DNA from: Psammoneis japonica
Taxonomy: Eukaryota
Reading direction: 5' to 3'
Length of the DNA stretch: 64,000 bases
Assembly (NCBI GenBank): GCA_008632985.1
Contig: QPGO01000004.1
Location: forward strand, 434,001 to 498,000
The notes beneath the pieces are model-generated. The model did no database searches and was not told the DNA's origin. It saw nothing but the letters and a program-made list of their open reading frames with translations. Positions within the stretch are counted from its first letter, which is position 1, and the number at the start of each line of letters is the position of its first letter. Both the position numbers and the translations under genes were made by a program. Below are positions 9,965-63,289 of this stretch, piece after piece.

Positions 9965-10000
9965 TTGTGCACACACACCACAGAAGGCAACAAGTTCAAG

Positions 10001-11154: not shown

Positions 11155-11217
11155 CTTGCACCGCAAGAGGAGTCTTGCGCTCTGCTGGACATTGGGAAGC
11201 CCAGAAAAAGGGCCAAA

Positions 11218-14300: not shown

Positions 14301-14330
14301 CTGACTCTAATGTGCAATTAGGGAGGCGAG

Positions 14331-20200: not shown

Positions 20201-20545
20201 CTTTTTGACATCCATGCTTTGAGTCACCACAGACCCAAAGCCAGTCTCACAGAAGAGAACAACTCGTCGCAGCCTAGCCACGCAAACCACGCAGCGAGCA
20301 GGCAGGCCAGACAGCGCCAGACAACGTCGGTCGGGCCGCGGGCGGTCGTGAGTCGTGACGCACGCACGAATTCTCGGGCCGTTGCGACGCGATTGGATGA
20401 TTGATTGATGAAGAGTGAATCTCAGCAATTCTGTTGTTACACCGCAGAACGACGCGAATCTCTGAATGCGGAAGAAAGCTAATCAATTGGTTCATTAGAA
20501 CGGGGGCAAGTAATTAAAAAAAAGTTATCAGAAAAAAAAAGTAAG

Positions 20546-28950: not shown

Positions 28951-29429
28951 TGTTATGTTATTCTTCTTGACTAACGATGAAGTGCTTACAAGTTAGATTT
29001 GTTCGGTTTATAACGCGATATGGTCGGTTTGTAACGCAATATGTGAAGTGCGTCAAGAGCAACGTTCAATAAGGCTTCTGCGGGTCATCGAAACCCAAGC
29101 TCGAGCTTCCCGCCAAAAATGAGACGCGAAAGTCAGACGTGCGTTGGATAATTTCAAAATATTCGAATTCGAATGTTTTTTAATAAAACAACGTGATGCC
29201 ACGTGGAACAAAAAAGAGTGAACAACATCTTTCTTGCCACCAACAACGAGAAAAAATAGTCACAACCGAACAACTACACGAGAACAATAAAAGAAAAGAT
29301 CACATCGACTGTAACCCAACGGCGACTGGCATCTTTAACGTGGAACCAAGCAAAGGCACACAGAAAAAAATAGAGAGAAAGAAAGCGATTGTTTTTGCAA
29401 ATTTCAAAAGAGTGGGATTAACAACAATC

Positions 29430-33872: not shown

Positions 33873-35501
33873 TTAGGTAGGACTTTTCTTCTCGTCGGCA
33901 GGTTGTGCCTTTTGGATTCGACGAATCAAGTCACTTGTGCTCAGTCCCTCTGTTCGTGGCAGTGCCCTTGCAATTCCAATCTGTCTCACATAACCATAGT
34001 AAGGATCGTCCTTTGGATCCGGATATCGTTCTTGATATTCTTCTCCAAAAGCCACCACATGAATCTGGTGCTCATCGAGAAACTCTTGTGTTAAACCGAA
34101 GCAAGGCGAATTGGGAATAACTTTTGTGACGGCCTTGCAAGCTTCAACTTCCTGACACCGCTCCGCATGAGTCATTATTGGTGGTCGCTTATATGAGCTC
34201 GCGTCCTTGTCTCCTACGACTCCCACAAAAAGACGATTACCAAAGCTCAGCGCATTTCGAAACAAAGTCTTGTGTCCAATATGACATAAATCATACACTC
34301 CGTCGCAATAGACGTTTCGACATGTCGTGAGCAACGGCATATTCAGGTAGGCGCACAAATCTGCAAAAACCGCAATATAGTAGACAAGCACCAGCGCCAG
34401 AATGGTCGAATGACTCAGTACTGCTGCCATTGACATGAGGACTACCAATGGGTGGATTTCTCTTCCAGCCATTTTGGCCAATGTAATGTCTGAAGTGAGG
34501 ACGGCCATGAAGAACCCATCACAAATGACATCCACAACTCTCAATTCAAATGCTGGCACGCCGACGTGGAGTAGAATCGCGGGCACTGATCTCATGAACA
34601 GACATGTAACTAATCCAAAACGACTCCAACCATGAGGATTCTTAAGCAAGAGAGTCTTGATAACTGCCACAATGTACACTCCATAGTAAAGCGCCATGAT
34701 GGCTTCTGGTCCAAGCGCAGATGGATCATCTCTGTATCGTTCAAAGAACTGTCCTTCATCAGGCATGATATTATCTCGAACCGCCAGCAATCGATGAAAC
34801 GTAGCTTCGTAAACTCGGAGCAACCAGTCCAATCCAAAAGTGGCGCGAATAGCCAACAACACGACGGCAGACATGATTACTTCGCCCGGTCCCGTCAGCA
34901 CATTGTACCGCAAACCGGCGTTCCGATGAAAGGCAGAGAGATGTTTCAGGAATAAAACCAGCTGCGATCCCTGCACAGCATACCATTGTGTTTCAATGGA
35001 GGTTCCTCCCAAACAATACGTGGTTAAAATGGCGAGAAAGACGGTCGAGCAACAATCGCAGCTGTACTTGAAGAGCTCGCCGAGAGCGGTTTTCTGCCGA
35101 ATGCGTTCAGCGTGACGTGAATCGACAGAGTTGGTAACGAAAAATAGTAGAATGTTCACCACGGCAAACCAAGTACATGCTGTAGGATACAGATCGCCGT
35201 AGAGATTCGTCATGTACCATGCTTGACCTAGGCAAGCGAGTCCAGCTAATGTGACAACGTTCGGTGCTACCGTCTCTGGAATGTACAGACAAACTTGATC
35301 AAACATATCCTTGGTCGCCCTGTGTGTCAGACTGGCGTCCTTCACATTCTCCTCCCAACGAGAAAAGGTGCTCTTCTCATAGGGAGTCAAGAAGAGCTCC
35401 AACCATCCTTCTGTTGCGCTCATAAAAATGTCCGACCCGAACGATGAGCCTTTTCTCATTGGTGATTGACCAACTCCATTCATTCTTGAAGAACCATTCA
35501 T
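33873..35501 (-). CDS. Fusion of a choline/ethanolamine phosphotransferase-like membrane domain with a C-terminal cytidylyltransferase (CCT/ECT-like)
   Basis: IPETVAPNVVTLAG (CEPT/AAPT family) and multiple TM helices, followed by VYCDGVYDLCHIGH, YKRPPIMT..ER and PRTEGLSTSDLIRRI. Confidence 0.9.
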   Translation of the reverse strand: MNGSSRMNGVGQSPMRKGSSFGSDIFMSATEGWLELFLTPYEKSTFSRWEENVKDASLTHRATKDMFDQVCLYIPETVAPNVVTLAGLACLGQAWYMTNLYGDLYPTACTWFAVVNILLFFVTNSVDSRHAERIRQKTALGELFKYSCDCCSTVFLAILTTYCLGGTSIETQWYAVQGSQLVLFLKHLSAFHRNAGLRYNVLTGPGEVIMSAVVLLAIRATFGLDWLLRVYEATFHRLLAVRDNIMPDEGQFFERYRDDPSALGPEAIMALYYGVYIVAVIKTLLLKNPHGWSRFGLVTCLFMRSVPAILLHVGVPAFELRVVDVICDGFFMAVLTSDITLAKMAGREIHPLVVLMSMAAVLSHSTILALVLVYYIAVFADLCAYLNMPLLTTCRNVYCDGVYDLCHIGHKTLFRNALSFGNRLFVGVVGDKDASSYKRPPIMTHAERCQEVEACKAVTKVIPNSPCFGLTQEFLDEHQIHVVAFGEEYQERYPDPKDDPYYGYVRQIGIARALPRTEGLSTSDLIRRIQKAQPADEKKSPT

Positions 35502-36284
35502 TTTTTTTCTTATTCTCGACTAGTAATTCACAGTCAAGCGCAAAAGAGTATTACATAAACTTGAAAGGCAACAACAATGCAGAATTGCTTGCCGATACCG
35601 AATGCCTGAAAAGAAAGAGTTCTGGTCTCAACATTGTTTGAACGAGAAAACGTCACGAACAGGCGGCACGTGGCACCTCGTACAAATTCTACACAGGTTT
35701 GGAATTTTGAATGCCACGTTGACGATGGATGGAGCACGTCGGCTTGTGAGCGGACACAGCACAGACCACATCTTCAGGTTCGCTTGCTTTCACATCATCG
35801 CATCCATCACGCGAAAGATGATCATTGTGACAGCGCTTTTTCATTTTTAGGCAGGGCCCTGGGGGATGACACTCTCTCTTACTTGCAGGTCTTAGCGTGC
35901 ATTGCCACTCTCTGGCATGCAGCCACCCACTGCAAATTGCAAATCACTTGACACTTTTTGTGTGTGTGCGTCAAAGTGCGTTTGATCATGCCAAACAGGA
36001 AAGCTTCCTTTTGCTGGTGGCTCATTTCGCACAACAACAAAAGGCCGCATGGGAAGGTGCGCAATCTTCTTGCACACTCTGCCTTGGGTGGTGGCCAAGC
36101 ACAAAACACACCACAACACCAGATCACCATGGCCACAAACACTGCGCACCAACCATGTCCATGTGCATGGACCAAATGCCAAAGCATGGTGAGATGTTGA
36201 GCACTGTGATGTGGAAGAAGAGAAGAAGGCCCTCTGGGAACAAAATTCTTGGTTGTCCAGGAAAGCCCAGCTCTGTGGCACAGC

Positions 36285-37558
36285 TGTTGGAACATTGCAG
36301 TGAGAGGCAGCAATTGAAGGACAAAGAACAGACAGCATTGCAGTGAAAGACACACTGACCATTGTGGATGACACATGGTGAATTTGTGCTGGCAAGTCGG
36401 GTTGAGTGGCGGGTCTTGTGCCAGCACTTTTTAGCTTCTGCACCTGGTTGACATGACAACAGAGAGCATGCCAAAAGAGCCAGAGCATCCATCAAGTGAC
36501 ACTGCATTGGAGAAGGACAAGGCAATCTGGGGCAAGCAATGCAATCACTGTGCAAAACAGAGCATGATCTGCAAAGCACAGAGGGTGGCACAAAGGTGTT
36601 TGGTGCAATCCAAGAGTGCACAAAGGCCATCAATCACAAGGTTGAAGGAGCAATGGAGTTTACAAGAGTTGCAAAGGAGTGAATGTGGCAGTGCTCCTGT
36701 CACAAATTCTCAAGTTGATCTTGCTCAATGCCAATGAGAAGAGGCACTCACATCTCCAGGTGGTCAAGCCTTGGAAGCAGCTGGCACTCATCACACATCA
36801 AGACAAAGGAGAGGCACTCAAAGATTGTTGCAGTTGGCCAATGAGCATTGTTGAGATGGTGGAAATGTCCTGGTGTGGTGGAATCATTTTGAAAGAAATT
36901 GCTGAGAAAGAAGATGGGTTCAGCAAGGATGCTGACAATGCCCAGAACAAAGAAAGGAACAAGTTGTTAGCAGCAATGCTTGTGGAAGGCACCAAGGAAC
37001 ATTGGCATGTCTCAACAGACCTGCATTGGCAGTTTGCACTGGGGGTTGACAGTTGTCCCAATTCAGCCAAGGAGGTTTTGCAGGTGTTGGGCATGCATGA
37101 GGCCAACAAGAAACCTGAGGGCACAAGTTTTGCACAAAACAAGAAGAAGCAGATCAAATGCTGGAAATGCAACAATTTTGGGAATGTGAAAAAGGATTGT
37201 CCTTTGCTCAACAATGACGCTGATGATTCATCAGCAGAGTCAGATGGTGCAGGCCATGGGAATCAGTGGAACAGTTGAAGTGGCATTTTGGATGGCATGG
37301 TTTCCACGTGTCATCCTCCTGTGCTCAATGCACACATGAGGCCAATCAATCAACAGCTTGTGCAAAAGAGTGTGTTGGAACATTGGGGTGAGACTGAGAG
37401 GCAGTTTTTGCAGAACAAACACAGACAACATTGCAGTGACAGACATGCTGACAATTGTGGATGACATGGTGAATTTGCACTCACAACTTGGGTTGAGTCA
37501 AGTTGTGGGTCTTGTGCTCACTTTTGAGCTTCTGCACCAGGCAGTTGACATGACAACA
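36285..37558 (+). mobile_element. Short gag-only Copia-type LTR element (~1.3 kb), degenerate
   Basis: Diverged direct repeats 36285-36461 and 37373-37558 (TGTTGGAACATTG...ATGACAACA), AAAAGAGTG before the 3' copy, and internal QFALGVDSCP...IKCWKCNNFGNVKKDC gag zinc knuckle. Confidence 0.7.
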
Positions 37559-38869
37559 GTGGTTGACAGCATTGGGAATGTGTTTGCAAGCCAGATGGTG
37601 AGATCTGGGTTGGTGAGACCAAGTGTGTGCCAGTTGGCAAGCCACAAAACTCTGACAATGGTGGTGGACAAAAAAGAAGAAGCCAGTTGAGGTTTTCATT
37701 CGAAACAAAGTGGAGGAAGTCAAGAACAGGACAGGCATGAAGAGTGCTCACATCTTTCAAGCACTCCAGAAAGGCACTGTCCCTCACCAGCCGCAGAACA
37801 GAGAGTGGTGTGCTTGATTGCTTGCAAAAGAAAGAGCAACACACACCACTCTCATGCTGAGCATGCAGACCCAGTGACAAAGATTGTTGCTTCTCAAGTG
37901 AAGGATGTTGTGCTGTCAGTGAAAACTGCAGCTTGCCATGTGGCATCACATGCATGAAAAAAAGAACAGGCCAAGGCAGTGTCTCTGACATGACCAAGAA
38001 AGAGCATGGCCACAAGTTTCTATTTGAAGAATCAATGACAGAGAATGAGGCATGCCACAGCTGTTGTGGCTGCATGGTTGCCCTGCTGTTGGTGAGCCAA
38101 ATGGAAACAGAAATGTTGTGCAGGGGAGCAAGAATGAGCTTGAGGGCTGGCAGGCTTTGGTGGATGAATTTGACAACTTCAAACAGAGTGGTGAACCACA
38201 AGGCGGACCTGGTGGCAACACCAGTTTCATCAACCAGTGAGGCCCAAGGAAAAGACAGCATGCGTTCAATGCCATTGTGCATGGTTTGGGTGTCTGTTGA
38301 ATGCTGGAGATGTTTCTGTTGCAGAGCACCCAATCAAATGCACTGACAGAATGCTGCTGTAGAATGTTGCAGCTTTGACAAGAGCTGAGACTGCCTCCTT
38401 TGGCTTCAGTTTCTTGCCACTGTGGATGTGGTGTGGTGGAAACAAAAGCAAACAATCACACACAACACCGTGCTTTTGCAATTCTCTTGTTTGATGATGC
38501 ATCTAAATGCATGCCTTGTGTGATGTGTTGTCAAAAGCTGTTTTCTGAGCTGGCAGCCAAGATGGCACGCATGCTTGGTCACATGAATGCCTGCAATGTG
38601 CTGACCCCAGTTTGGGCATCACAAGTGGGGCCAGCACTGCCCACCTCAGCAACATCTTTGATTGAGCTGCCAAAGCCCAGCTCTAGGAGCAACTTTGGCA
38701 TGCTCCAACTGAACTCAAGCAAGAGGACATGCAGCTCCAAAAATGAGGTGCAAGCAACTCTTGAATGGCGCATCTGAAGACATGGCTGTGCACATGTCAA
38801 ATGACTTTTGTGGTGACTCATCCCACCAAGAGTGCATTGAACAGGCTAGAAAGTTTGTGGGTGCATGAG

Positions 38870-40450
38870 CATCAATGGCTGTTCTTCTGAATGGAGCCTT
38901 GTTTAACTCTTGAGTGCTTGGGGTGTTGAAAAAGAGCTGTTGTGATCACAACAACCATCTCAACCTGGGGCGCCAACCTGGAAGATGGAGGTGGCAAACC
39001 TCCTGCAAGAGGATGAGGATGGCCAATCCTCTCCTTCATCCAGACAAACTTCCAGACAAATTTGGGCCACCTCAACTGACATTTGAGGCTGGACCCAGGG
39101 ATGTGGTGAACCCCTTTGATGGGATGGCTGTCCACAGCAATGGGGTGGTGGGGCTGCTGAGACTGTTCAGCTGACCACCCAGCAGGTTGCAGCTGACCAA
39201 CACAGAGGTGTGCCACTTGCCTTCTGATTTGCCAAGAACTCCTGCTGCAGCAAATGAAGTTTCTGAATCTGACAACCTGTGGTGGGCCATTTGCCCTCAT
39301 CCTCCTCAGGGCAGCTTTTTCCATTGTCCTCATGCTGGTGGTTTGAGCAAAGACCTTCTGGATCTTGCCATCCCCCCCCCCTCACCCTTGCAGAAGCCCA
39401 GAGATGGCAGTGCACAAGCACCTTGTTGACAGATCTCTGGGTGAAGTCAGAGCCAGAGAAGTGCTTGGAGTGTTCAACACCAATGCTTGCCCATTTGCCA
39501 GCATCAATGCAGCCAACAAAGCCACCAGAGCCAGGCACCATCTGCACATGCTTCTTGACAAACCATCAAAATCTGCGGCCCTGATTTCCAGTGCTTTGCA
39601 CATGAATCCCTCAATGCACCTTTCACACCAGAGGTTGTTCATCTCAGTGCTTGTGTTGTTGGCTGTCATCAGCAATGCAGTGCATTGAGTGAGTCAGGGC
39701 CTGCTGAATGACATTGAATGCAAGTTCAGCAGACCCATGGTTGGCTGCAGGGGGCTTGTGGGACAAGCCTGTGGCTGGCACCATGGATGAGCTGTGCTGC
39801 CAACTGTTCCCTGCAAAATTCAAAGAAAAATGTGAGCACATTGGATTGCATTCATGGCATGGAAAGAGACAAATGTCTCTCATTGGTTTGCTCACATGTG
39901 TGACAACAGGTCATCAAAAGTGAAACACCTCCTGCCATGCTGAGTGGCATGGGCACCTGGGCCAACATCTTGCAAGATTTGGCAAAATGAGTGTCACAAA
40001 TTGACTTGCCACAGTTCTGCCATGGCTTCACATTTTAACCCAGCACTCCACTTGCTGGCCCTGCTGACCAGGACATTCCAAGACTGCAATTGGCATGCTC
40101 AGCTTCTTGAAATGACCATGCAGCCCAATCTCATCTGGCAGATGCACACACCAGTTGAGCCACTTTCTCCCAAAGTTTTGACTGCACGACTCAGCGAACA
40201 CACAAAATTCATCCAAATCAATGTCACCCCAATGCCTGACACCAACCACCCAAATCAGGTGTGGAATCCAAGACAGCAGTGTGTCTTTGCTGGCACTTGT
40301 GGAGCTCTTGACTGGCATGCTTGGGCAGAGCCATGCTTTTGCATCAACCCAAGAACCTTGGCCCATGCTCTCAAGTGATTTGAGATGATGGGCTGTGAAA
40401 GTGGCCTTGGCAGCAACACAAAAATGCAATGATCTCAGAAGCCATTGCCT
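38870..40450 (-). mobile_element. Possible degenerate DIRS/Ngaro-type RT-RNase H relic
   Basis: Fragments FVGCIDAGK, LSDSET and HHIPG resemble RNase H motifs of tyrosine-recombinase retroelements; frames are broken. Confidence 0.3.
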
Positions 40451-40945
40451 TTGGAAACAGAGCTCTCAACTGAGTGTGCAAGCATGAGTGCATTGTGTCC
40501 TTGGAGCACTTGTTCATGATGGTGGTTTGTGGTTTCCTTGTTGTTTAGATTGATGCAAATGGCCAAGGACCAGTTGTTGGTGTTTCCAAAGGCAAATTGT
40601 CCTGTTGCTTGGGCACTCTCACCTTTGCTTGCTGCAGCCAGCACTGAATGATGTGGGCTTGATTCTGCCCCAAGTGCAAGGTGACCATGACCTTGGTGCA
40701 GAAGTCATGGCCACAAGCCTGGAGGATGTTGAAAGTGCTGTTTTCTCCACTGAGTGCGCTTGTGCCTCCTCCCCACTTGTGTCAGGACAACATCATTGTT
40801 GTGCTGTCATTGCCTCCTGTCATTGCGGTCCTTGTTTTGTGCACACAAATGTTGTTGGTTGGTGTCAGAGGGAGAAAATGTGATGGCAGCATCTTTCTCC
40901 ACAGCCTGGTGCAAATGAGCAATGAATGGACAATTTCCTCTTTAA

Positions 40946-41374
40946 CCCTTCAACCACCATGGGAGCAAATCTCCATGGGTGGAGATCTGCTCTGCTTGCA
41001 GATGTGTGACGTGTCATGCACTTTTATGACAATGTGATGTACACAGCATAAAAATGTCATGTCCTGTGCAATCTGCGCAAAAGCACCGCATTTGCTCCAA
41101 GGGTGTGGCATTGTTGCTCTGTTTGTGACAGCAATTGATGACAACCGCCATTGTCAATGGTTGAGATTTAGTTCCTCTCTGTTCTAAAAGTCGACATCGA
41201 ACTTTCTAAATTACAAAAAGGTTGCCCCCAGATTTTTGGCAAATGCGCGTTCCAAAACAAAATCATGCGAACAAAATGTTGTGCACATCTGAGGTTGCTT
41301 CATTTGCTGTGTTTGTGATGCAAGCAAGCAAATCTCCACCCGTGGAGATTTGCTCAAGTCTGGTGGTTGAAGGG
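40946..41374. mobile_element. piggyBac-type MITE (429 bp)
   Basis: Perfect 14-bp TIR CCCTTCAACCACCA / TGGTGGTTGAAGGG, subterminal palindromes (GCAAATCTCCA..TGGAGAT), flanks TTAA (40942-40945) and TTGA (41375-41378). Confidence 0.8.
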
Positions 41375-41421
41375 TTGACAACCAATGAGAGGTCTGAACT
41401 CTTCCTGCACCCCTGATCCTG

Positions 41422-41698
41422 TGATGGAAATTGAAGGCAAATGGCAAGAATTCAAACAATGACTCCTTGCTGCTGTCTAAATGGCAGATGAGTCTCCGCT
41501 CAGAGACAGTCACAGGAGCCGAAGGACGTGCAAGTCAAGTGTGATCGGGCTACTGTCATTGTTCTTGTGAGCCTTGTGGCTCGAAAGCAAACCACATCGC
41601 GCGTGAACGCGCGGAACTAAAGCACACAAAACTGTGCACGGTAAACTAAACAGCGCGCGATGCTTCGCGCGCACCCAAATCCTGTTCAAATCCTGTCA
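41422..41698 (-). repeat. Copia 3' LTR (TpA-converted copy)
   Basis: Direct repeat of 48257-48532. Confidence 0.95.
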
Positions 41699-44600
41699 CT
41701 CCCCAGTTTGCTTGAGGAGCCACAGAAACAGATTTGACTTCGGATGGAATGAAGTTCCAGAACATGAGGGGGCGGAGAAGGTCCCAGATTTGGGAGCAAC
41801 CCCAATGCTTGCTGAGAATGTCAGCAGGGTTGCGGGAGCCTTCGATGAAGTGGAACTCAAGGTGACCAGAGGCAATTGCCTCACGCACACGGTGGAACGA
41901 CAGTGCAGTGTGTCGCTTGTGTAACTTGGAGTGCGGGATGGTGGCACTGTCTACAACCGACTTGTTGTCACCGAACATGTAACCAACGTTACGGATCGGG
42001 ACGCCAAGGCAGCGCAGGGTGATGCGCAGGTCGACAATCTGCTCAACACAAGTCCTTGCGGCAACAAATTCAGACCCGCAGGTCGCAGTCTCCACGGTGG
42101 CTTGTTTCTTAGAGAACCAATCAGCCGGGAATTTGTTGAGGAAGTGGAGCATTCCCATGACAGAGCGTCCGGTGAGCATGCAATGGTACAAGTTTGCATC
42201 GACGCAGTGGGTGGCAGTGACGAACTTGCCAAGGGGCGGTGGAGCGTCCTTCGGGATCATCTCTTCTGCTTCACCATACACGGAATGCATCCATTCATAG
42301 GCCGGAGCAGGGAGATCCGAACAGTCGGGCTCTTCCGTGCGAACGCGGAGAGCACCATGTCGCATCTTGGAGAGGCACCCACAGACGCGCTTGGCACGAT
42401 CCAAGTGGCCTTGACGGGGCGCAGCTCGGAAGCTAGAGAGTGACATGACGGCCGTGGCAATGTCAATTCGACCAAGGGACACTGCCCATTGGAGTGAACC
42501 AACAAGAGACTGGAACTTGTGGATGCCATCGGGTCCCAGCAGTTCGGAAGTGTCCAGTTCGGGGTGGTCACCCTTCTCTAGAGGTGACAGGGCGTTGGTG
42601 GCAGGTTTCTCCCCAAACAGTCGGGCACAGCTGTCGACCATGCGCTCGATGTACTTGCGCGGAGACAGGCACAAGGTTCCGTCGGGTTCCCGGGAAAAGT
42701 CGCAACCCAGATGGAACTCAATGGGTCCCGCACCCTTGAGCTTGAACTTGTGCTTTTCCGTGAGGGTGTCGACGAAAGATTGAGGGTCCTTCATGGCAAT
42801 GGCGAGGTCATCCACATAAACGGCAATGTGTTCACAGTGGTCGCCGTTCCTGCGCATCCAAATGTCGGGTTCGGCGCGGCAGGGGAAGAAGCCTTCAGCT
42901 CGCAGGCAGTCGGCGAAGCGCTCATGCCAGTGGAGACCGGAGCTGCGCAGTCCATGCAGTGCCTTGTGGATGACAAGGATGTGTCCTTCGAGTTTGCCGA
43001 ACTCGGGTCCAGCTACAATGTAAAGCTTCTCCTTGGTGGTGGCTTCAAGGCAGGCATTGCCAATGTCGGTGGCCCATGTCTCCAACTCGTTGAGTTCGGC
43101 CAGGAAAATCATCAGCCGAAGGCCACGGAGGGAGACTACTCCGGAGCAGACACTGTCGACAGGTGCGTCCGTGAGGTGCCCGTCGGCTACGAGTCGTGCC
43201 TTGTGGCGACCGTCGTGTTTCACGTCGTGCACCAGGTGCACTCGGATCTTCTTGTGTCCCGCAGGAGGAGTGGAAGACTTGAAGGGCCCGCAGTCATGGA
43301 AGACTTCGTATTCGTCGAGTTGGTCCATCTCAAGATTAGTTGTGTCTCCCCACTTGCGGTTGCCGTTGCGTTCGTCTAGTGACATGGCGTGTTTGTAGTT
43401 CCGGGGAACTTCGCATCCATGCTTGTGGCGAGGTGCAGTGCGGAAGGAGCGAAGCTTGGCTTGGTTGGCCATGCGAAATGGCTTCTTTTGGCGCCTCGCG
43501 ATGGTGCGGAACCGCTTCCAGCCATCCGTGTCGAGGAGTCCGTTCTCTCGTGCATAGATGGCACAGGTGACGGGGTCGTCCTTGGCGATGATGGCAAGAG
43601 GCTCGGACGTGATCTCCCCACTTTCCCATTCAAGCATGATGTTGTAGCTGGAGCCTTTCCAGGTTGGGTCGTGAGGCTTCAGAGGTCCTTCGTGTGACAC
43701 GATGCGTCGAAATTTCCAAACAGTGGTGTCTTCGTCTTCTTGCTCAATGTGATTCATGATGTCATTGTGGGCAAGGACTTCCTCGTATTTGTCATTGTTG
43801 ACAGAGCAGACGAACTTAGTGAGCTCGGGATTGCCGTTCACTTTCCATTCGTGGTCTTCGACGGCCTTGACGATGCGAGCTCTGTGGCGTTGTCCGTCCT
43901 CTTGTGGCTGCATGAGGAAGGCACGTCCAATGATGTCTTGCGGATCGAAAACTGGCATCTTGGGTGTCCTGATCTCCCCATCAGGAGAGTCAACGGGGTT
44001 GTCGTCATGGCGAGATTTGATGATGGGTTCAGGTGGCTCCCCATCAGGAGGATCAAGACGCAGGTTTCGGACGGCAGGATCGGGGGTAGCGGAGCGGACA
44101 TTGGACCGGCAGAGGATCTTCTGATTCTCGTCAGATAGAATCTTGAAGGTCATCTGGTGGCCGACGTGCTCAGCAATGCCAACGAAGCGTCCATGCAACT
44201 CACGGGATTCGGACGGCCAATCGGAGTCATCGAGGTGGAAGCACACGGGTTCCCACCAGTGAAAGCGAAGCAATGGGCTGATGTCCGGGGTGGAGCCAGT
44301 GAGAGTCTCAAGGGGCGTGCGCCAGTGGAGACGTGGGGACGCTGCATGGTTGAGTGTGAAGCACACGTGCATGAGCGCCAGCAGCCATGCATGGGCGGGC
44401 GAACCAAAACGATCCATGACAGTGTTCGCCATGCGCTTCACGGTCTGGTGTCGATGCTCGGCAAAGTTTTGGTGTTGCTGGTGAGGCTCACTTTGCCAGC
44501 TAGAGATGAAGAGGGCGCGTAGGATCCCGAGCACTTTGTTGCTGATCTCAACTTGAGCACGGTCGCCAATGAGTTTGGATGGGGCACCACGTTCACGGAT

Positions 44601-45750
44601 CTGATCCTCGAGTGTGTTGACAAACTCTTTGTCCGTCTTAGTGCCGTAGACGTCAGTGACGGTAGACTCGGTGCCAACAAACAGTTGGGCGCTGGTGCAA
44701 CCAGAGTCGACGGCCGGGGTGTCGGCACAAACGGTGTCAGTGGCGATGGGCTCGTTGCGGCGGTGCACATTAAGGGCGGGGTTGGGTGATTTGCAGGCCT
44801 TGCGAAGGTGTGTACCGGCGGGCATGCGGGCGCACTGCGTGGTGCAGTCAAAAGTACGACGGACCGCATCGGCAGGTGGGAAGCCAAAGTGAGGCCGAAG
44901 AGACTCGAAGGGGGGGTCCTTGGGCTGTACAGTGCGCTCCGGAGGTGGAACATCATCGCCCTGGGGGCCAATCGCATGCAGATGACACTCGTAGAACACA
45001 TCGTCGTTCGGAATGAGGTGATCATCGAGGGCGGACGCGTGATCGGCAGACAAGGAAGCGGACATGATGGTCTCGTTGACAACGACACGATGACGGCAGT
45101 TGCCGCACTCGTCAAACAGGTTGGCAGTGGGATCGTCCTGCAGGTCAGAGATCGCGTCGCACCACTGGTCGTCGTCAGTGACAGAGTGATCGAGGACGGA
45201 AGGGTCCCATGTGTCATCACCGGTGAGGATGACATGGGGCAGGGTGTCCCATTCGGCGTCAGTGTAAGGTCGCATGGCAACACAAGGCAGGCCAGCCTTG
45301 ATGTCAATGGGGATGACATAGCCATCAGGAGTGGCAATGCGTTGCAAGCCGTTGGGCACCTTGACAGAGCGATCGTTGACATCCTGTTTGCACCATTCGA
45401 GCTGGCCGCAGGAATGGATGGTCTTGCCCTTGCCCGTGCATGCGCACTGATGGAGCATGGCGATGACGGGACCACGCTGGGTCTCAACAACGGCACCAGC
45501 GGTGACAATGGGGATGTCCACCAATTGATGATCGTCAATGCCCTGAACGTCGACTTGGCGAGAGGTGCGTGCAATGACGCGAACGTCGTCGCCAGCAATG
45601 CCGCCGTTGGCCCCACGATCGACTAGAGCGCCAGTGCGTGTGGAGCGATGAGCAGAAGCAGAGCAAATGACATTGTGGTTGTCAACGCGGCGGTGAGTGT
45701 GACCGTTGAGTTCTGTGTCATCTGCAGAAGCTGGCGGGGCAGAGGAAGCG
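41646..45750 (-). pseudogene. pol: Copia pol (protease, integrase, RT, RNase H): open frame but with many Tyr->Cys/His changes
   Basis: Protease LVDRGANGG (~45600-45625); integrase ATDTV, DRAQVE, HQNFAE; RT HKARLVA and YVDD; RNase H SEFVAA, GDNKSV, NPADILSK. Confidence 0.93.
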
Positions 45751-47314
45751 GCGGATGGCCCGGTCGACTGGCATTGGGGGCTTGGTTAGGAGACAACAGA
45801 CGTTGCAGATCACCGGGTGGCAGTGGCTTGCGCTTGGTGAGGTGCGCCAGGATGGGATTGTCCGAAGTGGCATCCACATGTGGAGCGGAGTCACCAGAGT
45901 CAGCAGGAGTCGTGTTGGACAAGTTGACATCACCGTCACTCCCAAGGCGTTGGTCGTGAAGGTTGGCCGTAACAGACTCATGGCAGTTGCTGGCTCGCGG
46001 GTTGCGGGGAGGTGGACGAGAATGCTCAAGGATGATCGCCTTGGAGGAATCGGGCAACGAATCCCAGAGCCGTTGGTGGTCGGGAGGGAGACGTCTCCAT
46101 TGGACACCGGTGAGGCTGGGACCGCGGGTGCAGGCAGCATTGGCTTGAAGGACGTCAACGTCGCTGTCAATGTCGCAGAACACATCGTCGGACGGTTCCT
46201 CGGAGTGGACGTTGTGTGCGCACATGGCGCGTCGGGGAGCTCGAGGTGTCGTCTTGGGTTGAAACGTGCTGTCGTGCTGAGCTGCGGCGGAGAGGAGCAA
46301 GCCACAGCATTGATCGCATGTGAGGCTCTTGCCACTCTGCGCACGATGCTGATCAGCTTGGTTCTTGACAGCACGGAGTTCCTCGACAGGGTGCACGGCA
46401 TTCTCGAGCATGACGCGCTTCTGTCCTTCAGAGAAGTGGTCGCTGGCCGGGATGAGTGCCTCGCACTTGCGCAACTGATCTTGCCAATGAAGGATGAACC
46501 CGTGGGTCGGACCTTTCCAAGTGCCATCACCAAGACGCGCGGTGGTGAGGTGCGTGAGCAGGGTGGAGGACTCGACAGATGCGCGGGTGGAGGCAAGCGC
46601 GCACTCAGACAAGGAGCGGCAGACGGTCTGTGCGTCAGAAGACCCCACATTTTCGCAAATGAGAGCCTTGCCCTTGTCGGTGAGAAGGATGCGTTCGAAG
46701 ACGGCGAACATGTGCTTTTGCTGTTCAGCAAAGAGCAGTTTGTCTTCGGGGCTGGTCGGTTTGTACGACGAGTCTAGAATGCACTCGACGTCTTGGGCAC
46801 GGGCTTGTGCCACAAGTGAGGTGTGCCAAGTGTGCCACTGCTTGTCGGATTTGAGAGCCGTGAAAGCGGTGGGATCACGCTTGATGCCTCGCTTGAAGTC
46901 CCGCACCGGGTCGCGTGCCTTGGTCGGGTTGGTGACATGTGGAGGTGCAAGGGGTGAGCTGCCGATGGACACAGAAGACATGCAGTCGGGGCTGAGGTGG
47001 CAGGCAAGGAACTCGTCATGCGCAAACAAAGAGGAGTCATTGGCAACGTCAAGACCTTTGTGTGCTTTGACAATGTGCAGACTGACCAGTGCTGCTAACA
47101 TGTTCTTGTGACCACGGGGCAAAGGGATTGCATTGGTGCCGTTTTTGCACTCAAGCGAGTCGATTTGGGACGGCATGAACGTGAACAGTTCCTGACACGA
47201 GTCTGTGCCGTCTTGGGCCAAAGCCAAACGAAGAGGACTCCCAGCACCTTGGGCAAGCACGGTTCCAACCACGTGCTCGAAACCATCGGTTTGTTGCTGA
47301 CGAGTGAGAACCAT
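45750..47314 (-). pseudogene. gag: Copia gag; frameshift relative to pol near 45750
   Basis: ORF 45623-47344 with DFKRGIKRDP, AQARAQDV and LENAVHP. It leaves the protease frame upstream of LVDRGANG. Confidence 0.85.
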
Positions 47315-48256
47315 GGCAGACAAAGGTGGTGTCAGGACAATCAATTCTGGTTGGGAAGCGAAGGTAGACTCGAAACTTGGGTGAGAACAGACTTGACTTG
47401 AAATGGACTTGACTTGAAATCTTGAACTATCTTAAAATCAGAAGTCGCCGGGCTTTGTCACCCCGTTCGTTGTCAAGTGCTAAACTTCCCATCCGGTCCG
47501 CAGAGTTGTGCCGGCACGTCCGAACCCGCAGCCAGCGGCGCTTTGGGTTGCTTGCGAGCGGAGCAGCGGGTTGTAAACCCCTGCAGGTAAGCTGACTAGA
47601 GGTGGACAAGACCCCCGAACCGTTCTCATTTTTGTGTCGGTTGGATTTCCCGATCAGGCTGGCCAGTTGACGCAGGCGTCAGGCGCTGTGGACGAACGAA
47701 CAAACGCGGGAAAGCACCCTCGCCCCAACGCAGGCTGCAATCACGGCTGCCTGCTCTCACAGTCGTCCTCGTGGACCTAGCAGAACTGTAGAGCACCAGT
47801 GGTCCGGGGTAGATCAGGTGCAATGGACTCGGTGTGCTTGTAGAGTGGTGGCAAAACCGCAGTCCGAAGAGTGGATAAAGGTTCTTGGCCGTGAAGACAT
47901 GTATATATATATATATGTCTTCAGCGACGAAGATCCTTGAATATGTAGGGTTCTTGACCGTTAACCGAGGAATAGGTATATAAAGGGATGTTGATCAAGG
48001 ATAGACTTGGATATGACCGTTGAATATAAGTCTTCAGCGATCAAAGGTAGTATAATCAATCCAGATATCCAGCGGTAAGGAGACTTGACGGTGACGTTAA
48101 CTTCCTGCCGATGCCCTGGTATTGAATGCGCGTAGACTTGCCGATGTATGTAGAATATATACGGAGGTCCACGTAGAATTGAAATAGCGTCGTTGGTAAA
48201 TCAACGACGACGATGGCGGTTGCTCAATGGGTTGACAATGAGCAAGACTGTTAATC

Positions 48257-48532
48257 TGATAGAAATTGAAGGCAAATGGCAAGAATTCAAACAATAACTC
48301 CTTACTGCTGTCTAAATAGCAGATGAGTCTCCGCTCAGAGACCGTTACAGGAGCCGAAGGACGTGTAAGTCGGTATAATCGGGCTACTGTTATTATTCTT
48401 GTGAGCCTTGTGGCTCGAAAGCAAACTACATCGCGCGTGAACGCGCGGAACTAAAGCACACAAAACTGTGCACGGTAAACTAAACAGCGCGCGATGCTTC
48501 GCGCGCACCTAAATCCTGTTCAAATCCTGTCA
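48257..48532 (-). repeat. Copia 5' LTR (largely unconverted copy)
   Basis: Direct repeat of 41422-41698 that retains TpA. Confidence 0.95.
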
Positions 48533-48539
48533 TCCTGAT

Positions 48540-51280
48540 TGGTGGCTCTGTCCACTCCCTGCCAGAGGTTGTGGGCAGTTTGACTTCAAAGAAGGCTTGC
48601 AGTCTCTTTCTCTGCTCCAGAGCAGGAGCACTTTGACTGCATTTGTTGGTTGGGGAAATTGCCTGGTGCACGTGCATGAGGGCTTCATGTGTGCAACATC
48701 ACCTGGTGGCACAGGAGGAGGGACAAATGCAGAGAGCATGGGTGGAACTGAGTCACATGGGCAGGGAAAGGGATGGGTCAGAGGGTGCTGGGGGCAGCAA
48801 GTTGGGACTGCATTTTGATGGAGCAGCAGATGAGTTTGTCAGCAAGTGACTTCTTGGCAATCACAAGGCTGAGGCTTTGAAGGCCCCAATGTGATGGAGC
48901 AGAGGTGTGGTGGGTCAAGCCAAAATGTGCAGCAGATGTGTTTTTCCAAGTGGCGGTGGTGGCAGCAGGGAGAATGGCAGATGGTGACAGCTGGGCACAG
49001 GTGCATGTGGCATGGGCGGCTGGATGTTTAAAGGAGGATTCAGTGGTCCAAGGACGGGTGGGTGGAGCATGGACCAGGTCTTCTGGATCAGCTCTGAAAA
49101 GGAGACGGCAAGCAAAGTGACCAGGAGCTGCAGGGGTCAGCTGCACCATTGCAAGAAGGGCAAGAGATGGATTTGAGGTGGTCAGGTGAGATGGGAAGCT
49201 GCAGCTTGCATTGTGGCATGAGGTGGAATTGATCCAGGGCCAGGCATGATTGTTGGGGTGAGGAGTGGGCAAGGGAGTGAGAGGGAGGCTTGCAAGTGGA
49301 GAGAGAAGGGGCAGGAATGCAAGGGTGACGTGTGCAGGGCCTCGTTGTTTGAGCATTTGCAGCTGATGTTGAAAGTGGGCATGGCACAAGGTGTGGGAGA
49401 GGTTGCACAGTTTGGGAATGTTTTTACAAGGGTGGTGAGGGAGGGCAGAGCAGGGTCAAGTGTTGAGATGGTGGTGGTGCCACACTGCAGAAAGACTTGA
49501 CAAAGGTGCAGGGCAAGGAACAATGTGAAGTGGCCCATGTGCAGAGGGAGCAAGCACAAAAGGGAGGTGGTCCAGGTGCAGCACATTGCTGGGAACAGGC
49601 CAGTTGAGAGAGGAAGAAGGGGATGGTGGAAGTGGTGATGGAGCAGCAACCTGCACCACCAGCAGATTCAGGGAGATGAGTGAGGAGCAATGCACAGGGT
49701 TGCAATTGTGCTGTGAGGGTGCTGCAGGAAGGCATTGCAGCAGTGCTGGATGTCTTGTTGGAAGGGCAAAGTCCAGGAAGCAAGGGGCAGTGGGGGTTGT
49801 CTGGGTCAAAGTTGAAGCACACGTCTGAGATGAGGAGGTGTGGGAGGGAGGAAGTGGCACAAGTGTGGCAGAGGGAGCTTTTGGTTTGGGTGTCTCAAAG
49901 GCAGGAGCAGAGTTGGTCAAGGTTGGTCCAGAAAGCAGAGGCTTTTTGGTCAAGGCAGGTGCAGGCAAAGTCAGGGCTTCCAATGGCTGGCCAGAGAAGC
50001 AGAGGCCAGCAGCAATTTCAGGGCAGACAGTGGGGGTTGTTGGCGGGGTTGAGGAAGGAGATTGCTTGGTGGAGGGTGACAGCACTTGCTGGGGGCAAGT
50101 TGGGCAAAGGGCCAGTGCCAGAGATGGAGGTGAGCATGTGTGTCTTGGAGTGGTTGAGGTGAATGCCATGTGGTGGGCCAAGCTCTTCAAGGTGTTGCAG
50201 GAACCACGATGATGCTGAAGATGAGGGCAGCAAAGGAGGGAGGAGCCAGTGGCTGGGCAACCCTGGGAGAGTTCGCTTCTGGTTGAGGGAAGGATTGCCA
50301 GCAACCACCAGGGTCACAGTGCCAGCACATGTTGGGGGTGTTGTGGCAGTGGTCAAAGATGAGAATGAGGTGATGGAAGGCTGGGGTTCTGTTGAGAAGT
50401 TGTTGACAAGCATCTTGGGAGCACTCATTGATGAAGTTGGCATGAAGAAGTTGGCAAGATTGAGAGTGAGGAAAGCGTGAGTTGGTGTGGCAGCATCAAG
50501 GCAGTGTTCAATGTTGGTGCATGTGGCATGTGCCAGGCAGTCAAGGCCTCCTTTGATGCCAGCACCATGCCAACACCAAACTGGCCATCAGGAAGCAGAC
50601 ATTTGGTGAGGGCAGGTGTGTTGATGGTCACAGTGAGGGCACCTGCGACACGGCAGACTCTGCAGCACCGCAGTCAATGGGGCGAAGTTTGACAAGGTCA
50701 GTTGGATCTTTGTGTGGGGCAACCAAGAAGTTGGCAGCAACAAGGGGTTGGATGTCTTGTGGGACAGAGCCAGTTTGAAGGTGGAGCACAAAGTCCTGGA
50801 AGGCAGAGAGGTGTGTGTTTTAGTTGGGGTGGCGGTTTTGAACAGGGCACGTGCTTTGAGGAGGTCAGTGGAGTCAGTGCACGGGCCAGCAGCAGTGCCA
50901 GGTTTGCACTTGCTGAGAGCAGCTAAGAGCTTGTCATCAGAGACACAGGGCAGGGATGGCGGGGGTGGCCGGAGAGCACTGTGTGGGAGGGGCAGGGGCT
51001 TGGGGTGGTGGTCGTGGGGCACCGGGCGGGTGCAAGAAGGCATGAATGAGAGGGAGGTGAGTGTCATTGATGGTGGCAATGGGGAGGTTGGAGGTGACTT
51101 GATGGTGAGCAGCACCAAATTTGTCAGCATCGGCAGATGGCTGGGCTGTGTGGCAACAGGCGGCGGAGGGGGAGAGACAGGGTGCATGGGTGGCAGCATC
51201 ACAGTGGGAGGGAAGGGTGTGGGCAGCATCGTGGAGTTCGCAGATGCGGTCTTGCTGGAAAAGCAGACGGTCATTTCTTG
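48540..51280 (-). mobile_element. Degenerate non-LTR retrotransposon RT (CRE-like)
   Basis: Across frames: KPGTAAGPCTD, HKDPTDLVKLRP, GQFGVG, SQGCP, FLQHLEELGPPHGIHLNHSKT and GQP, in RT domain order; heavily frameshifted. Confidence 0.65.
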
Positions 51281-51523
51281 GGGTTGACAGTGCCAGAGCG
51301 GCTGGGTGGAGCGAGGATGAGGGCTTCATATAAAAGCAGCAAACGAAGACTGTGAGGAATCATTTCAATCGAATTACTGTAGTCCGAGTGCCACAAATAA
51401 TCCAGATTTGTCGCGCTGACACACGAGGCACGACTCAAGGCCGCGCCACTCTGATGTGCACGTCTGCGACGCCTCGAAAGCAAAAGCGCCAGAATCATCC
51501 AGAAGCTCTCGCAAAGTCTGAAA

Positions 51524-56967: not shown

Positions 56968-57431
56968 CTTGACTGGTGTTGTGTTCCGATTCTCTTTTGA
57001 AAGATTTTATGGATGCCGATGGTTGGATCTTGGATGCATTGCGTTCGGCTCTTGAAGTTCCACGTCGGCGTTGTACTGCCGCGCCTGTGTGTAGAACTTC
57101 CCGTAGAAACCGTAGTATCCAAAAGACAGCGACGCAATCTGATGGGCGTCAGGCTCTCGACCAATCAGATTTCGCGACGACATGCGAAGCGAGGGATTTT
57201 GCGTGGTACTGAATGTATGTAGAGGTACATACGGGTTTTGGACGACGAGACCATCGTATGCCTCAGACATGCAACACGTACACGACACAGACGGCCATCG
57301 AAAATCTTCGAAATCTTCGGACACAAAATTCGCGCGCTTTTTTTGCCGCGCTACTCGGCGCTCGCTCACTTTTTCGACGAGATTTCTTCGACAATCTCAA
57401 AAACACCAACGACATAGAGCTTATCAACAAC

Positions 57432-60400
57432 ATGTTGACCCGCATGGCAGCTAGACGAGCCTTGGCTCATCAGAGTAAAGCGAGAGTGTCTTCCTCTCCA
57501 TGGGCGAGACAAGCGTTGAAAGCTTTCTCGTCGACGACTCGGTCGTGTGATACAACGAACGGCATGTTGATGAGAACTCCAACATCATCTTCTTTGATGC
57601 GTCCTACTAGAAGTTTTCGTCAAAAACCATTTACGTTGCGAACCTTTGCTTCCATGCCGGGTGGAGGCATTAATGTGATGAATCCTCAACAAGACAAGCC
57701 GGGACAGCACTTGGAGCAGTACGGTGTCGACTTGTCCAAGCTCGCCAAGGACGGCAAGCTAGATCCCGTAATTGGGAGGCACGAAGAGATTCGACGAACG
57801 CTTCAGATTTTGGCACGACGCACCAAAAACAATCCCGTCTTGATTGGTGAACCCGGTGTAGGCAAGACGGCAATTGCCGAAGGACTGGCACAGCGTATTG
57901 CTTCCGGACAAGTGCCGGAAAGCATGAAGGACAAGCGTGTGGTTAGCCTAGACCTGGCGGCGATGATTTCCGGAGCAATGTATCGGGGACAGTTTGAAGA
58001 GCGTCTCAAGGGTGTTTTGAAAGACGTGGAGCATGCGGATGGATCGATTATTTTGTTTATTGATGAATTACATACCATGGTCGGAGCGGGCAAGAGCGGA
58101 GAGGGCGGCATGGACATGAGTAACATGCTCAAACCGAGTTTGGCTCGTGGGGACTTGCAACTCGTAGGCGCCACCACATTAGACGAATACCGGAGAATTG
58201 AAAGCGATGCGGCCCTGGCGAGGCGATTCCAGAGCGTCTTTATTGCAGAACCAAACGTTCAAGACACAATTTCGATTTTGCGAGGAGTCAAGACAAACTA
58301 TGAGCTACATCACGGGATTCGCATCAAAGACGAGGCTCTCATTGCGGCCGCGACACTTTCCGACAGGTACATTTCGGATCGAAAGCAGCCAGACAAATCG
58401 ATTGACTTGGTGGATGAAGCGTGTAGTCGACTCCGTTTGGAGCAAGAGTCCAAGCCTGAAATCATATGGAAGGTGGAACGGGACTTGCTGACCAAACAAA
58501 TCGAACTCAGTGCGCTGGAGAATGAGGGAGATGATAAGAAATCGGTGGCTCGCAAGGCTCAGGTACAATCTGATGTGGATGATCTCAATGCAGAGCTCAA
58601 GCGCCTGACAGACTTGTGGCAATCCGAGAAGGATCAACTCGAACGTGGCAAACGCGTCCAAGAGGAGCTCGAGGAGGCCAAACGGCAACTCAGCCTGGCG
58701 AAGCAAAAGGGAGATTTCGCCAAGGCGGGAGAATTGGTCAATTCCAAAATACCCCAACTTGAACATGAAATGGAGGAATTTGAAAAACAAGCAGAGTCTT
58801 CTTCTTCCGCCGAAGGAGAACATGATAAAGGACCAAAGATGCTGGCCGATGCAGTCACTGCCGAGGCCATTGCTACAATCATTGCACGTCACACTGGTAT
58901 TCCAGTTTCTAGAATCACCGGTAGCGAATCGAAAAAGCTCTTGACCATGGAAGACAAATTGAGACAGGTACGAATTTTCCTTTGAAATGTGCTTGTTGTA
59001 TCTGCTTGTGTTGAGCATCACTGTACCTGACGATGCGTTTGGAATTCTCTCCAAAAAACAGAGGGTTGTTGGACAAGAGCAGGCTCTGTCAGCTGTCAGC
59101 AATTGTGTTCGTCTCGCCAGAACTCGGTTGCAGGCGCAAGTAAGTGTTTTTGTGGATTGGGTTGTTGCTCAGTCTTCTCGATTTTGGCGAAACTTATCGC
59201 TCGTCCCTCTTTCGACTTTTGTAGGATCGTACGCTTGGAAACTTTCTCTTCCTTGGGCCGACGGGAGTTGGTAAGGTACGGTTACTAGTCCCAAATGTCT
59301 TCTCGTTTATTTCCTTGTTCGCAGTAGCTTTCTCACGGTGCCTATCTTCATTCACTTCGATTTTCTTTTCTTTCTCCAGACGGAACTGTGCAAAGCATTG
59401 GCTGAATTCATCTTTGACGATCAGGATGCCATGACCAGGGTTGATATGAGTGAATACGGAGAGAAGCATACCGTTTCAAGGCTCATTGGCGCACCGCCAG
59501 GCTACGTCGGGTACGAAGAAGGAGGTGTTCTTACAGAGAGTGTGAGACGTCGTCCTTATCAAGTGTTGCTGTTGGATGAGTTTGAAAAGGTACGTTTGTT
59601 CCCCAGCTTTGTAGTTTTTGAGCTGGTAATATTTATTTACTAATCACTTTCTTCGTGTTTGCTGCTACTCTGTGTACTTTACATAGGGCCACCGAGAAGT
59701 CTGGAATCTGCTCCTGCAGCTGTTTGATGAAGGGCACTTGACAGACTCTCATGGCAGGAAGGTAGACTTCCGAAATGTCATTGTAGTGGTAGGTCTGACT
59801 TGTCTTGCTGCTTTGTATTCTTGTCGTACGAATCTGACTAACCGTCCTGTCGTTTTCCTCTGTGTTCAGATGACTTCAAACATGGGCGCCGAAATCATCT
59901 CGGAACTACCAGCCCACATGATTGGAACTGAACCAGAGGTGCAGAACTCAATCATGGAAGTTGTGCGCCACAGCCTTAGCCCCGAGTTGCTGAATCGTAT
60001 CGACGAATCCGTCATCTTCAATCGTTTGCAGCGGGAGCATATGGACAGAATTGCCGGTGAGCACAGAGCAATCATGTTCCAAGCTGTTCCTTGTCAAGTT
60101 ACGTTGTTTTCTCAATTGTTTTTTGACTCGCGTTTGACTTTATAGAGATTGGAATCAAAGATATCGCGGATCGATTGGAGAGCGCTCAAAACATGACGTT
60201 GGACGTGAGTACGACAGCACGCGATTGCCTCGCAGACCGTGGTTACGATGTTCGATATGGTGCTAGGCCCCTGAAACGTGTCCTTGCTCGAGATCTTCTC
60301 AATCCGCTTAGTCGCCTTGTCCTAGAAGGAGGGGTGATTGACGGCGACGAGGTGAAGGTGCGATCAAGAGGCGAGGCAGAGAGGTCTGACAATGAATTTG

Positions 60401-63054: not shown

Positions 63055-63289
63055 CGGGAACAATTCTTTTTTTTTAACAGAGGATATATGCAAAACAAAG
63101 AAGAATTTATCGTGGACGCCTCAAATACTTTACCCACCAACAACACTACGAAGAAAGTTGAGACTCTCAACTCTCTCTGCCGTTGATGAGACGCCGTCAA
63201 TGATGTAATAGTGTAGGCCGTAGGGCCCTTAGGTCCTAATGCGGCGGCGAAGTGATGAGTCGACTGAAAAAAATTAAAATGAATGGTGA

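Follow-up and report, generated by a model that had tools for sequence, protein, structure and literature searches.

The 64,000-nt window analysed here, from the diatom Psammoneis japonica (assembly GCA_008632985.1, contig QPGO01000004.1, positions 434,001 to 498,000 of the forward strand), carries on its minus strand a Ty1/Copia long terminal repeat (LTR) retrotransposon (41422-48532, in the coordinates of the window, which are used throughout), whose gag-pol has lost most of its conserved tyrosines. In our view, this Copia element is probably one casualty of a regional process at the DNA level, which turns TA into TG or CA within islands of repeats and does not touch the neighbouring genes. 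Across the window the loss is specific to the dinucleotide TpA and leaves both CA and TG behind, the islands in which it occurs are sharply bounded, and the older repeats have come close to saturation. The changes would be A:T to G:C transitions at the adenine of either strand within 5′-TA-3′, by which, in coding sequence, a Tyr codon (TAY) would become a Cys (TGY) or a His (CAY) codon.

Tyrosine loss in the Copia gag-pol

The element is bounded by paired LTRs of 276 and 277 bp and a 5-bp target-site duplication, and is organised as follows.

41417-41421, minus strand: target-site duplication CAGGA (minus-strand reading), beside the 3′ LTR; the same 5 bases at 48533-48537
41422-41698, minus strand: 3′ LTR, TG..CA, 277 bp, converted, 5 TA left
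41646-45785, minus strand: pol frame, 1379 codons, with the RVT_2 reverse transcriptase at residues 841-1052
45758-45761, minus strand: single gag/pol frame change (G then CCC in the window, one more C in other copies)
45623-47431, minus strand: gag frame, likely start ATG at 47314-47312, conserved Tyr columns kept in 1 of 10
47778-48256, minus strand: start of the leader, about 480 bp behind the 5′ LTR, unconverted and dense in TA, with (TA)7 at 47902-47915
48257-48532, minus strand: 5′ LTR, 276 bp, unconverted, 17 TA
48533-48537, minus strand: target-site duplication CAGGA, beside the 5′ LTR

Its assignment to Copia rests on the reverse transcriptase in pol (Pfam RVT_2, PF07727, E-value 8.2e-27) and on the paired TG..CA LTRs with their short target-site duplication. 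The closest proteins in a collection of 5.8 billion sequences are 60-71% identical and are mostly encoded by single gag-pol open reading frames (ORFs) of about 1850-1900 residues. In the window, gag and pol overlap with one frame change, behind which other copies, in contigs of public reads, have an extra C; with one N placed behind 45758, 1928 codons are open with no internal stop, which bears out the near-open gag and pol frames described in the first-pass annotation of this DNA.

The same annotation had singled out nine peptides with odd Cys or His residues, and had taken Tyr to be the likely ancestor at these positions. All nine are present in the minus-strand pol frame (41646-45785), and each of the odd residues lies opposite a Tyr when compared with the consensus derived from 25 intact homologues, as listed here (consensus first, this copy second).

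HQYAYxGKGK / HQCACTGKGK
GLPY / GLPC
HLVYDVK / HLVHDVK
SVYSGVV / SVCSGVV
DIGNAYLEA / DIGNACLEA
KALYGL / KALHGL
xYEYIAVYVDD / HCEHIAVYVDD
ATYGSEF / ATCGSEF
LRYLGV / LRCLGV

To count the converted fraction against intact homologues, as the annotation had proposed, a Tyr column was defined as one with Tyr in at least 70% of 60 full-length homologues. In the 48 columns so defined this copy has Tyr 11 times, Cys 20 times, His 12 times, Phe 4 times and Trp once, so that 32 of 48 now read Cys or His, and other conserved residues are kept in 765 of 868 columns (88%; 71-97% per residue type). Conversion is incomplete, as had been noticed, with Tyr surviving in YVDD (pol 990) and in KYIE (pol 1045). Overall, Tyr accounts for 1.16% of the residues in pol and 0.17% in gag, whereas the 85 homologues longer than 1800 residues have 3.82%; the lowest value among the 120 homologues listed is 2.86%. 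The Tyr columns give the change a direction, from TAY to TGY or CAY, and support a loss of TpA as the origin of these replacements. No clear rule emerged from the bases flanking the Tyr codons. The annotation named no mechanism, and the extent of the process over the window and its timing after insertion, described below, go beyond it.

Upstream of the reverse transcriptase, pol has about 840 residues. At E-values up to 1, Pfam found RVT_2 only, in this pol as well as in two intact homologues (P0001 and P0005), and a profile of 26 sequences, compared with solved structures in search of an integrase or protease, gave no match at E-value ≤0.01. The protease and integrase regions of this Copia lineage are probably too divergent for the current Pfam models, those of intact homologues included. 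Diatom Copia elements have been divided into CoDi groups (CoDi1-7), defined by reverse transcriptase phylogeny (PMC2806351).

Dinucleotide balance and comparison with relatives

In the body of the Copia element (41646-47431), the ratio of observed to expected counts (o/e) is 0.18 for TpA and 0.90 for CpG. With TpA at 0.2 and CpG at 0.9 of expectation, the TpA process is separate from CpG decay, in agreement with what the annotation had argued from the abundance of CpG, and is also the faster of the two. The losses are closely balanced by the gains: the converted part of the element (41413-47749) has 56 TA against 292 expected and 459 CG against 505 expected, i.e. 236 TA and 46 CG are missing, and the excess of CA and TG amounts to 298. 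The flank 36000-41412 falls short by 339 TA and 286 CG and has a surplus of 608 in CA plus TG.

The element also stands apart from its relatives. Among 80 environmental (metagenome) elements, TA o/e is 0.41-1.02 and guanine plus cytosine (GC) content 0.41-0.53, compared with 0.18 and 0.57 in the Copia element, and their longest ORFs have at least 2.78% Tyr. The TpA footprint was found in none of these elements, the best 80 of 316, a set in which converted copies would be under-sampled, since one of the two retrieval patterns includes the Tyr of SVYS and the best-scoring loci were kept. Four of the relatives (L003, L028, L039 and L076) have a CpG o/e of 0.22-0.44 together with the lowest TA values of the set (0.41-0.52), and their Tyr contents fall outside the 12 lowest values listed; their low CpG may reflect ordinary methylation decay in other diatoms.

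A second element and the repeat islands

The footprint is not confined to the Copia element. The window has two repeat islands (about 6250-20250 and about 35500-51300), and the first of these encloses a Ty3/Gypsy element.

9586-14709, plus strand: Ty3/Gypsy LTR retrotransposon, LTRs at 9586-9964 and 14331-14709, TG..CA, 379 bp, same TpA footprint
9582-9585 and 14710-14713: 4-bp duplication CCTG of the Gypsy element
6250-20250: first repeat island, enclosing the Gypsy element, without TpA, the older parts also without CpG, with sharp edges
36000-41416: older repeat block beside the Copia 3′ LTR, TpA and CpG both lost
48538-51200: older repeat block beside the Copia 5′ LTR, TpA and CpG both lost
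6250-9581, 14714-20250, 36000-41416 and 48538-51200: the old repeat blocks of the window

The Gypsy element, which has RVT_1, RNase H and integrase domains and whose pol has diatom proteins as its named relatives, contains 46 TA against 342 expected and 235 CG against 293 expected. Its pol ORF of 691 residues has 0.43% Tyr, and of 20 conserved Tyr columns only 2 are kept, the others reading Cys (9), His (7) or Phe (2). This is an independent replicate of the footprint in a second superfamily.

The old blocks have gone further. Pooled (16.9 kb), they show an o/e of 0.04 for TA, 0.13 for CG, 1.91 for CA and 1.79 for TG, with the other twelve dinucleotides at 0.81-1.25. Taken singly, the flank 36000-41412 has 19 TA against 358 expected, 31 CG against 317, 613 CA against 332 and 668 TG against 341, and the flank 48533-51200 has 4 TA against 130 and 27 CG against 172. 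The order of decay is thus that TpA goes first (Copia), CpG starts to go (Gypsy), and both are gone (old blocks). Host gene regions, with an o/e of 0.57 for TA and 1.02 for CG, are unaffected. Since TAA and TAG are missing, the old blocks are rich in ORFs of 110-420 codons in all six frames, and no credible Pfam domain was found in the 55 stop-to-stop ORFs of at least 110 residues. When the window was compared with itself in purine/pyrimidine coding, no match of at least 80 bases was found besides the two LTR pairs, and the old blocks show no detectable likeness to each other or to the two elements.

The edges of the islands (about 6200-6250, 20250, 35500-36000 and 51250) are sharp within about 250-500 bp, and at least one of them, that near 20250, is situated just upstream of a long ORF of the host (20483-22507).

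Timing and strands from the LTR pairs

The two LTRs of one insertion are copies of a single template at the time of integration. In the Copia pair, 15 differences are found in 277 aligned columns, and 12 of these are TA in the 5′ LTR and CA or TG in the 3′ LTR, with none in the reverse direction; the 5′ LTR has 17 TA, 12 of which read CA or TG in the 3′ LTR, where 5 TA are left. In the Gypsy pair, the 382 ungapped bases compared contain 48 differences, 47 transitions and one transversion (the last two differences fall just outside the 379-bp LTR, leaving 46 within it, 45 of them transitions). In dinucleotide columns, 16 read CA in one Gypsy LTR and TG in the other, 5 TA against CA or TG, and 6 CG against CA or TG, and 19 CG are common to both LTRs. 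Since most CpG sites have survived in both, the CA/TG columns must almost all descend from TA sites that were converted separately, to opposite outcomes. In plain letters the Gypsy LTRs are 87% identical, compared with 99.7% in purine/pyrimidine coding.

Because LTRs start out identical and yet differ at their TA sites, some of the conversion, in the LTRs at the least, must have taken place in DNA that was already inserted. Both strands were affected, since the replacement of Tyr by Cys (20) as well as by His (12) requires hits on either one.

These pairs also bear on the view that ordinary composition or selection shaped the region, by avoidance of TA, by GC-biased gene conversion among repeats, or by a change of CA to TA, like that of repeat-induced point mutation (RIP), that enriched TA in the 5′ patch. 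TA is indeed somewhat low everywhere (o/e 0.57 in the host), and the GC content of the element exceeds that of its relatives. Selection, however, cannot explain why a pair of LTRs from the same insertion should be unlike at 12 TA sites and almost nowhere else; GC-biased conversion has no TA context and would not yield opposite CA and TG outcomes; the replacement of Tyr in reverse transcriptase motifs is not adaptive; and a RIP-like direction is contradicted by the Tyr columns and by the TA values of the relatives. We regard this explanation as largely refuted, and give it hardly any credence.

A different objection is that the copy was born mutated, most of its conversions having arisen before it integrated, when RNA or cDNA of the element was edited, and having then been inherited through retrotransposition. 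The Copia family is highly repeated (14547 contigs of the public run X1, from the same organism, at a likeness of at least 80%), abundant variants are only about 0.7-2% away from the interior of this copy, suggesting shared conversions, and the 5′ LTR and leader, which act in cis, have stayed intact, as they would in a copy still open to mobilisation in trans. Such editing would nevertheless not make Copia LTRs differ at 12 of 17 TA sites or give 16 opposite CA/TG outcomes in the Gypsy pair, and it sits poorly with hits on both strands and with the near-saturation of old blocks without any recognised gene. Pre-integration editing is a contributor at most, and as the main source of the conversions we find it improbable.

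The spared 5′ LTR, the read evidence and the context of surviving sites

Several points weigh against a regional process of this kind. In the 5′ LTR and the adjoining 480 bp or so of leader (47778-48532), TA is as frequent as expected (57 observed, 56 expected), and a defence aimed at this Copia family should not obviously spare them. Contigs of three small public runs differ from the interior of the element in the window by 3-17 letters over 369-902 bases, fewer than would follow from independent conversion of every copy with about even outcomes, such as the Gypsy LTRs suggest, so a converted ancestor may have handed down some of the interior conversions; the table of read variants mixes TA-type with CG-type differences and gives no direction to paired CA/TG differences. 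Run X1 would consist of accurate short reads that are not misled by modified bases, to judge from its depth and its longest contig (315 kb). No enzyme or targeting factor was seen within the window, and no deaminase search of the whole genome was made. Finally, the sequence-context classes used below (RTAY, YTAR and mixed) were set after the counts had been seen and are exploratory.

On its inner side, the spared patch ends somewhere within 47150-47778. In the read contigs, the LTRs are the most repeated part of the Copia family. As the 5′ LTR was spared and the identical 3′ LTR was hit, sequence homology or copy number alone cannot be the trigger. The sparing could reflect a protected active promoter, the boundary of a conversion tract, or gene conversion with an unconverted copy as donor; a crossover between two insertions fits poorly with the matching target duplications. 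In the unconverted leader, the (TA)7 run (47902-47915) is two bases shorter in other copies. The converted ancestor suggested by the small runs perhaps went on multiplying, mobilised in trans through its intact LTR and leader, and transitions dominate the variants of the family among the 40 of 436 variant places listed.

The same patch invites the suspicion of an artefact, either systematic miscalls of modified TpA and CpG in an assembly built from long reads, or a chimera of a converted and an unconverted copy joined at about 47.7 kb. Older long-read base callers miscall modified bases as transitions, and among the contigs listed none spans the limit of the spared patch. Against this, 69% of the sampled 31-mers of the stretch are present in run X1, and contigs at a k-mer depth of about 60 match the depleted flanks at 41107-41330 (224 bases) and 48506-48954 (449 bases) with 0 differences, and the matching 5-bp target duplications speak against a join of two insertions. 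An artefact is therefore very unlikely.

With the reservation on the classes made above, surviving TA sites fall into RTAY, YTAR and mixed contexts in the numbers 9, 19 and 28 in Copia, 5, 24 and 17 in Gypsy, and 2, 24 and 12 in the old blocks, compared with 8075, 4555 and 11981 in the relatives. Survivors are thus enriched in YTAR (TTAA, CTAA, CTAG) and depleted in RTAY (ATAT, ATAC, GTAC) in all three. In the polarised Copia LTR pair, 3 YTAR sites were kept and 1 was converted, and among all others 2 were kept and 11 converted. In this exploratory comparison the counts suggest a wider preference of the process for RTAY over YTAR.

Nature of the process

We infer that the conversions would be the work of a defence of the genome driven by an enzyme, most likely one that deaminates adenine in DNA and would need a T on the 5′ side, the same idea having been put forward for Bigelowiella natans (see below). 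The loss of CpG in the older blocks is probably due to a second, slower process, probably the deamination of 5-methylcytosine, which leads to the same end products, TG and CA.

An adenine deaminase would not be needed if, in silenced chromatin, TpA carried a modified base that mispairs at replication or undergoes biased repair; thymine in an oxidised or some other altered form would be an example, and so would methylated adenine. Only the outcome is visible, A:T to G:C at TpA on either strand, in which a hit on A and a hit on T look the same; TpA and CpG are lost from the same blocks, as would suit heavily modified chromatin, and in certain protists a modified base takes the place of thymine, preferentially at TpA. 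Excision repair would, however, be expected to give a mixed spectrum, and the differences are almost purely transitions (47 of 48 in Gypsy); the B. natans authors, in the text of their preprint, also favour deamination, as a hypothesis. We therefore consider a modified base unlikely, but less so than the explanations weighed above. A signature of the polymerase eta type, directed at WA, was dropped as a candidate, as AA (1.20) and TT (1.25) are not depleted.

Returning to the deaminase, a bolder proposal can be made, tentatively and in the knowledge that it may well fail. Diatoms might carry an adenine-directed counterpart of fungal RIP, targeted to chromatin domains, which deaminates the A of 5′-TA-3′, possibly best in RTAY, and ruins retrotransposons in a short evolutionary time while their frames stay open and the active 5′ LTR is spared; given that a chlorarachniophyte has the same signature, it could be old and widespread in the SAR group (stramenopiles, alveolates and rhizarians), and would be a natural editor of adenine in DNA.

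Comparison with known systems

The only report of this mutation pattern that we found in the searched literature is a 2026 preprint on B. natans. In mutation-accumulation lines of this alga, according to the preprint text, 231 of 302 nuclear point mutations lie in two integrated viral regions, where all but one are A to G or T to C, all of these on TpA and giving TpG or CpA (Mettrop et al., bioRxiv 10.64898/2026.01.13.699255). Its authors propose an ADAT2-type DNA adenine deaminase as a hypothesis, and their Discussion recalls that ADAR favours a 5′ U before the edited A (10.64898/2026.01.13.699255).

The likeness to the window is close. As far as the preprint describes them, the integrated giant-virus and virophage DNA of B. 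natans shows transitions on TpA only, to TpG or CpA depending on the strand, with depletion of TpA and a gain of CpA and TpG, in bounded regions of invading DNA within an otherwise ordinary genome, and the TpA-poor coding sequences of that genome are enriched in reverse transcriptase and DDE endonuclease domains. Here, too, A:T goes to G:C at TpA, giving TpG and CpA, and the changes are confined to bounded regions of mobile or foreign DNA. By this analogy, the best reading is that the same kind of process would be at work in this diatom, on retrotransposon islands.

There are also differences. The host is a diatom (a stramenopile) here and a chlorarachniophyte (a rhizarian) there, and it is LTR retrotransposons and old repeats that are hit in the window. 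The window also has a far deeper footprint, with a TA o/e of 0.04-0.2, compared with the 0.45 that the preprint text gives for the viral region. Action after integration follows here from LTR pairs rather than from mutation-accumulation lines. The older blocks here are also poor in CpG, which the available preprint text does not mention, and, as far as that text goes, the spared 5′ LTR and the possible RTAY preference are peculiar to the window.

Fungal RIP (Neurospora and others) likewise produces dinucleotide-specific transitions at the DNA level, on both strands and with sharp regional limits, and disables transposons. Its C to T changes, mostly at CpA, give rise to TpA and to stop codons and reduce GC, whereas here TpA is removed, GC is raised and no stops are made. 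RIP is moreover triggered by duplication, whereas here the most repeated part, the 5′ LTR, is spared. RIP itself was accordingly rejected, with TpA lost and GC at 0.57, compared with 0.41-0.53 in the relatives.

The APOBEC3 proteins (on cDNA) and ADAR (on repeat RNA) of animals also restrict retroelements by deamination and leave clustered transitions in integrated copies. They act before integration and on one strand, which leaves the LTRs alike, whereas here the LTRs differ and both strands are hit. Editing of this type was rejected too, since both outcomes occur and the members of each LTR pair differ at TA sites.

Literature searches on diatoms or on TpA loss in repeats, which left most subscription journals outside their scope, turned up no account of a TpA-specific loss from the repeats of diatoms. 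Neither the CoDi paper (PMC2806351) nor a long-read re-examination of two diatom genomes (PMC8147415) uses the words TpA, dinucleotide, hypermut or RIP, and the preprint's main text, in the form available, has no mention of diatoms, stramenopiles, retrotransposons, LTRs or CpG (10.64898/2026.01.13.699255).

Implications

New here are the action after integration read from LTR pairs, the near-saturation and the spared 5′ LTR. In comparison with the mutation-accumulation study, the window adds that integrated DNA is targeted on either strand with a roughly even outcome, to near-saturation, and faster than CpG decays. Should the pattern hold genome-wide, TpA-specific hypermutation of invading DNA would not be peculiar to one chlorarachniophyte but would occur also in diatoms. 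Diatoms are major primary producers with working genetic tools, and the enzyme, if the proposal is true for them, could be sought and tested there. There would be a practical (biotechnological) interest, too, in a naturally occurring enzyme able to edit DNA adenines within a defined context.

Two consequences concern genome analysis. Long open frames in such regions are no sign of function, and gene finders would be misled by them. The dating of insertions by LTR divergence badly overestimates ages unless TA and CG sites are masked, as the Gypsy pair illustrates (87% against 99.7%).

Open frames and the end of pol

The changes TA to CA and TA to TG turn TAA into CAA or TGA and TAG into CAG or TGG, and make no stop from a sense codon. 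As the change creates no stops, the near-open gag-pol of the Copia element is a by-product of the type of mutation and not a sign of function.

The pol frame runs into the 3′ LTR, as the annotation had observed; the LTR starts at 41698 and the stop codon, a TAG, lies at 41646-41648, 50 bases inside it, so that the last 17 codons and the stop are within the LTR. The annotation had considered a converted stop as the possible reason. After SKHWG the tail is 55 residues long, which falls inside the span of 27-61 in 60 homologues, 59 of which are shorter. In the long-tailed homologues P0037 and P0042, an RGVT stretch resembles the WGVT encoded here by the start of the LTR, and on this resemblance the run-in of pol into the LTR may be ancestral. 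The CAA and TGG codons just before the LTR could be former TAA or TAG.

Neighbouring genes

The host genes of the window are long uninterrupted ORFs of ordinary composition.

3-1094: NSUN5-like RNA methyltransferase
24995-25933: GRIP-domain protein
29187-30905: DnaJ-thioredoxin protein
33873-35519: cytidylyltransferase
57213-58985: ClpB-like AAA ATPase
61039-63120: DEAD-box helicase

For the ClpB-like ORF, a look-up of protein clusters gave bacterial AAA clusters only and was uninformative as to the taxonomy of the host. Among the named proteins of the collection searched, the host has no close relative. The named relatives of the DnaJ-thioredoxin ORF are only diatom proteins (Cylindrotheca, Nitzschia, Epithemia and Fistulifera, and the truncated transcriptome names Trice-, Chae- and Minut-), with a best identity of 59-60%.

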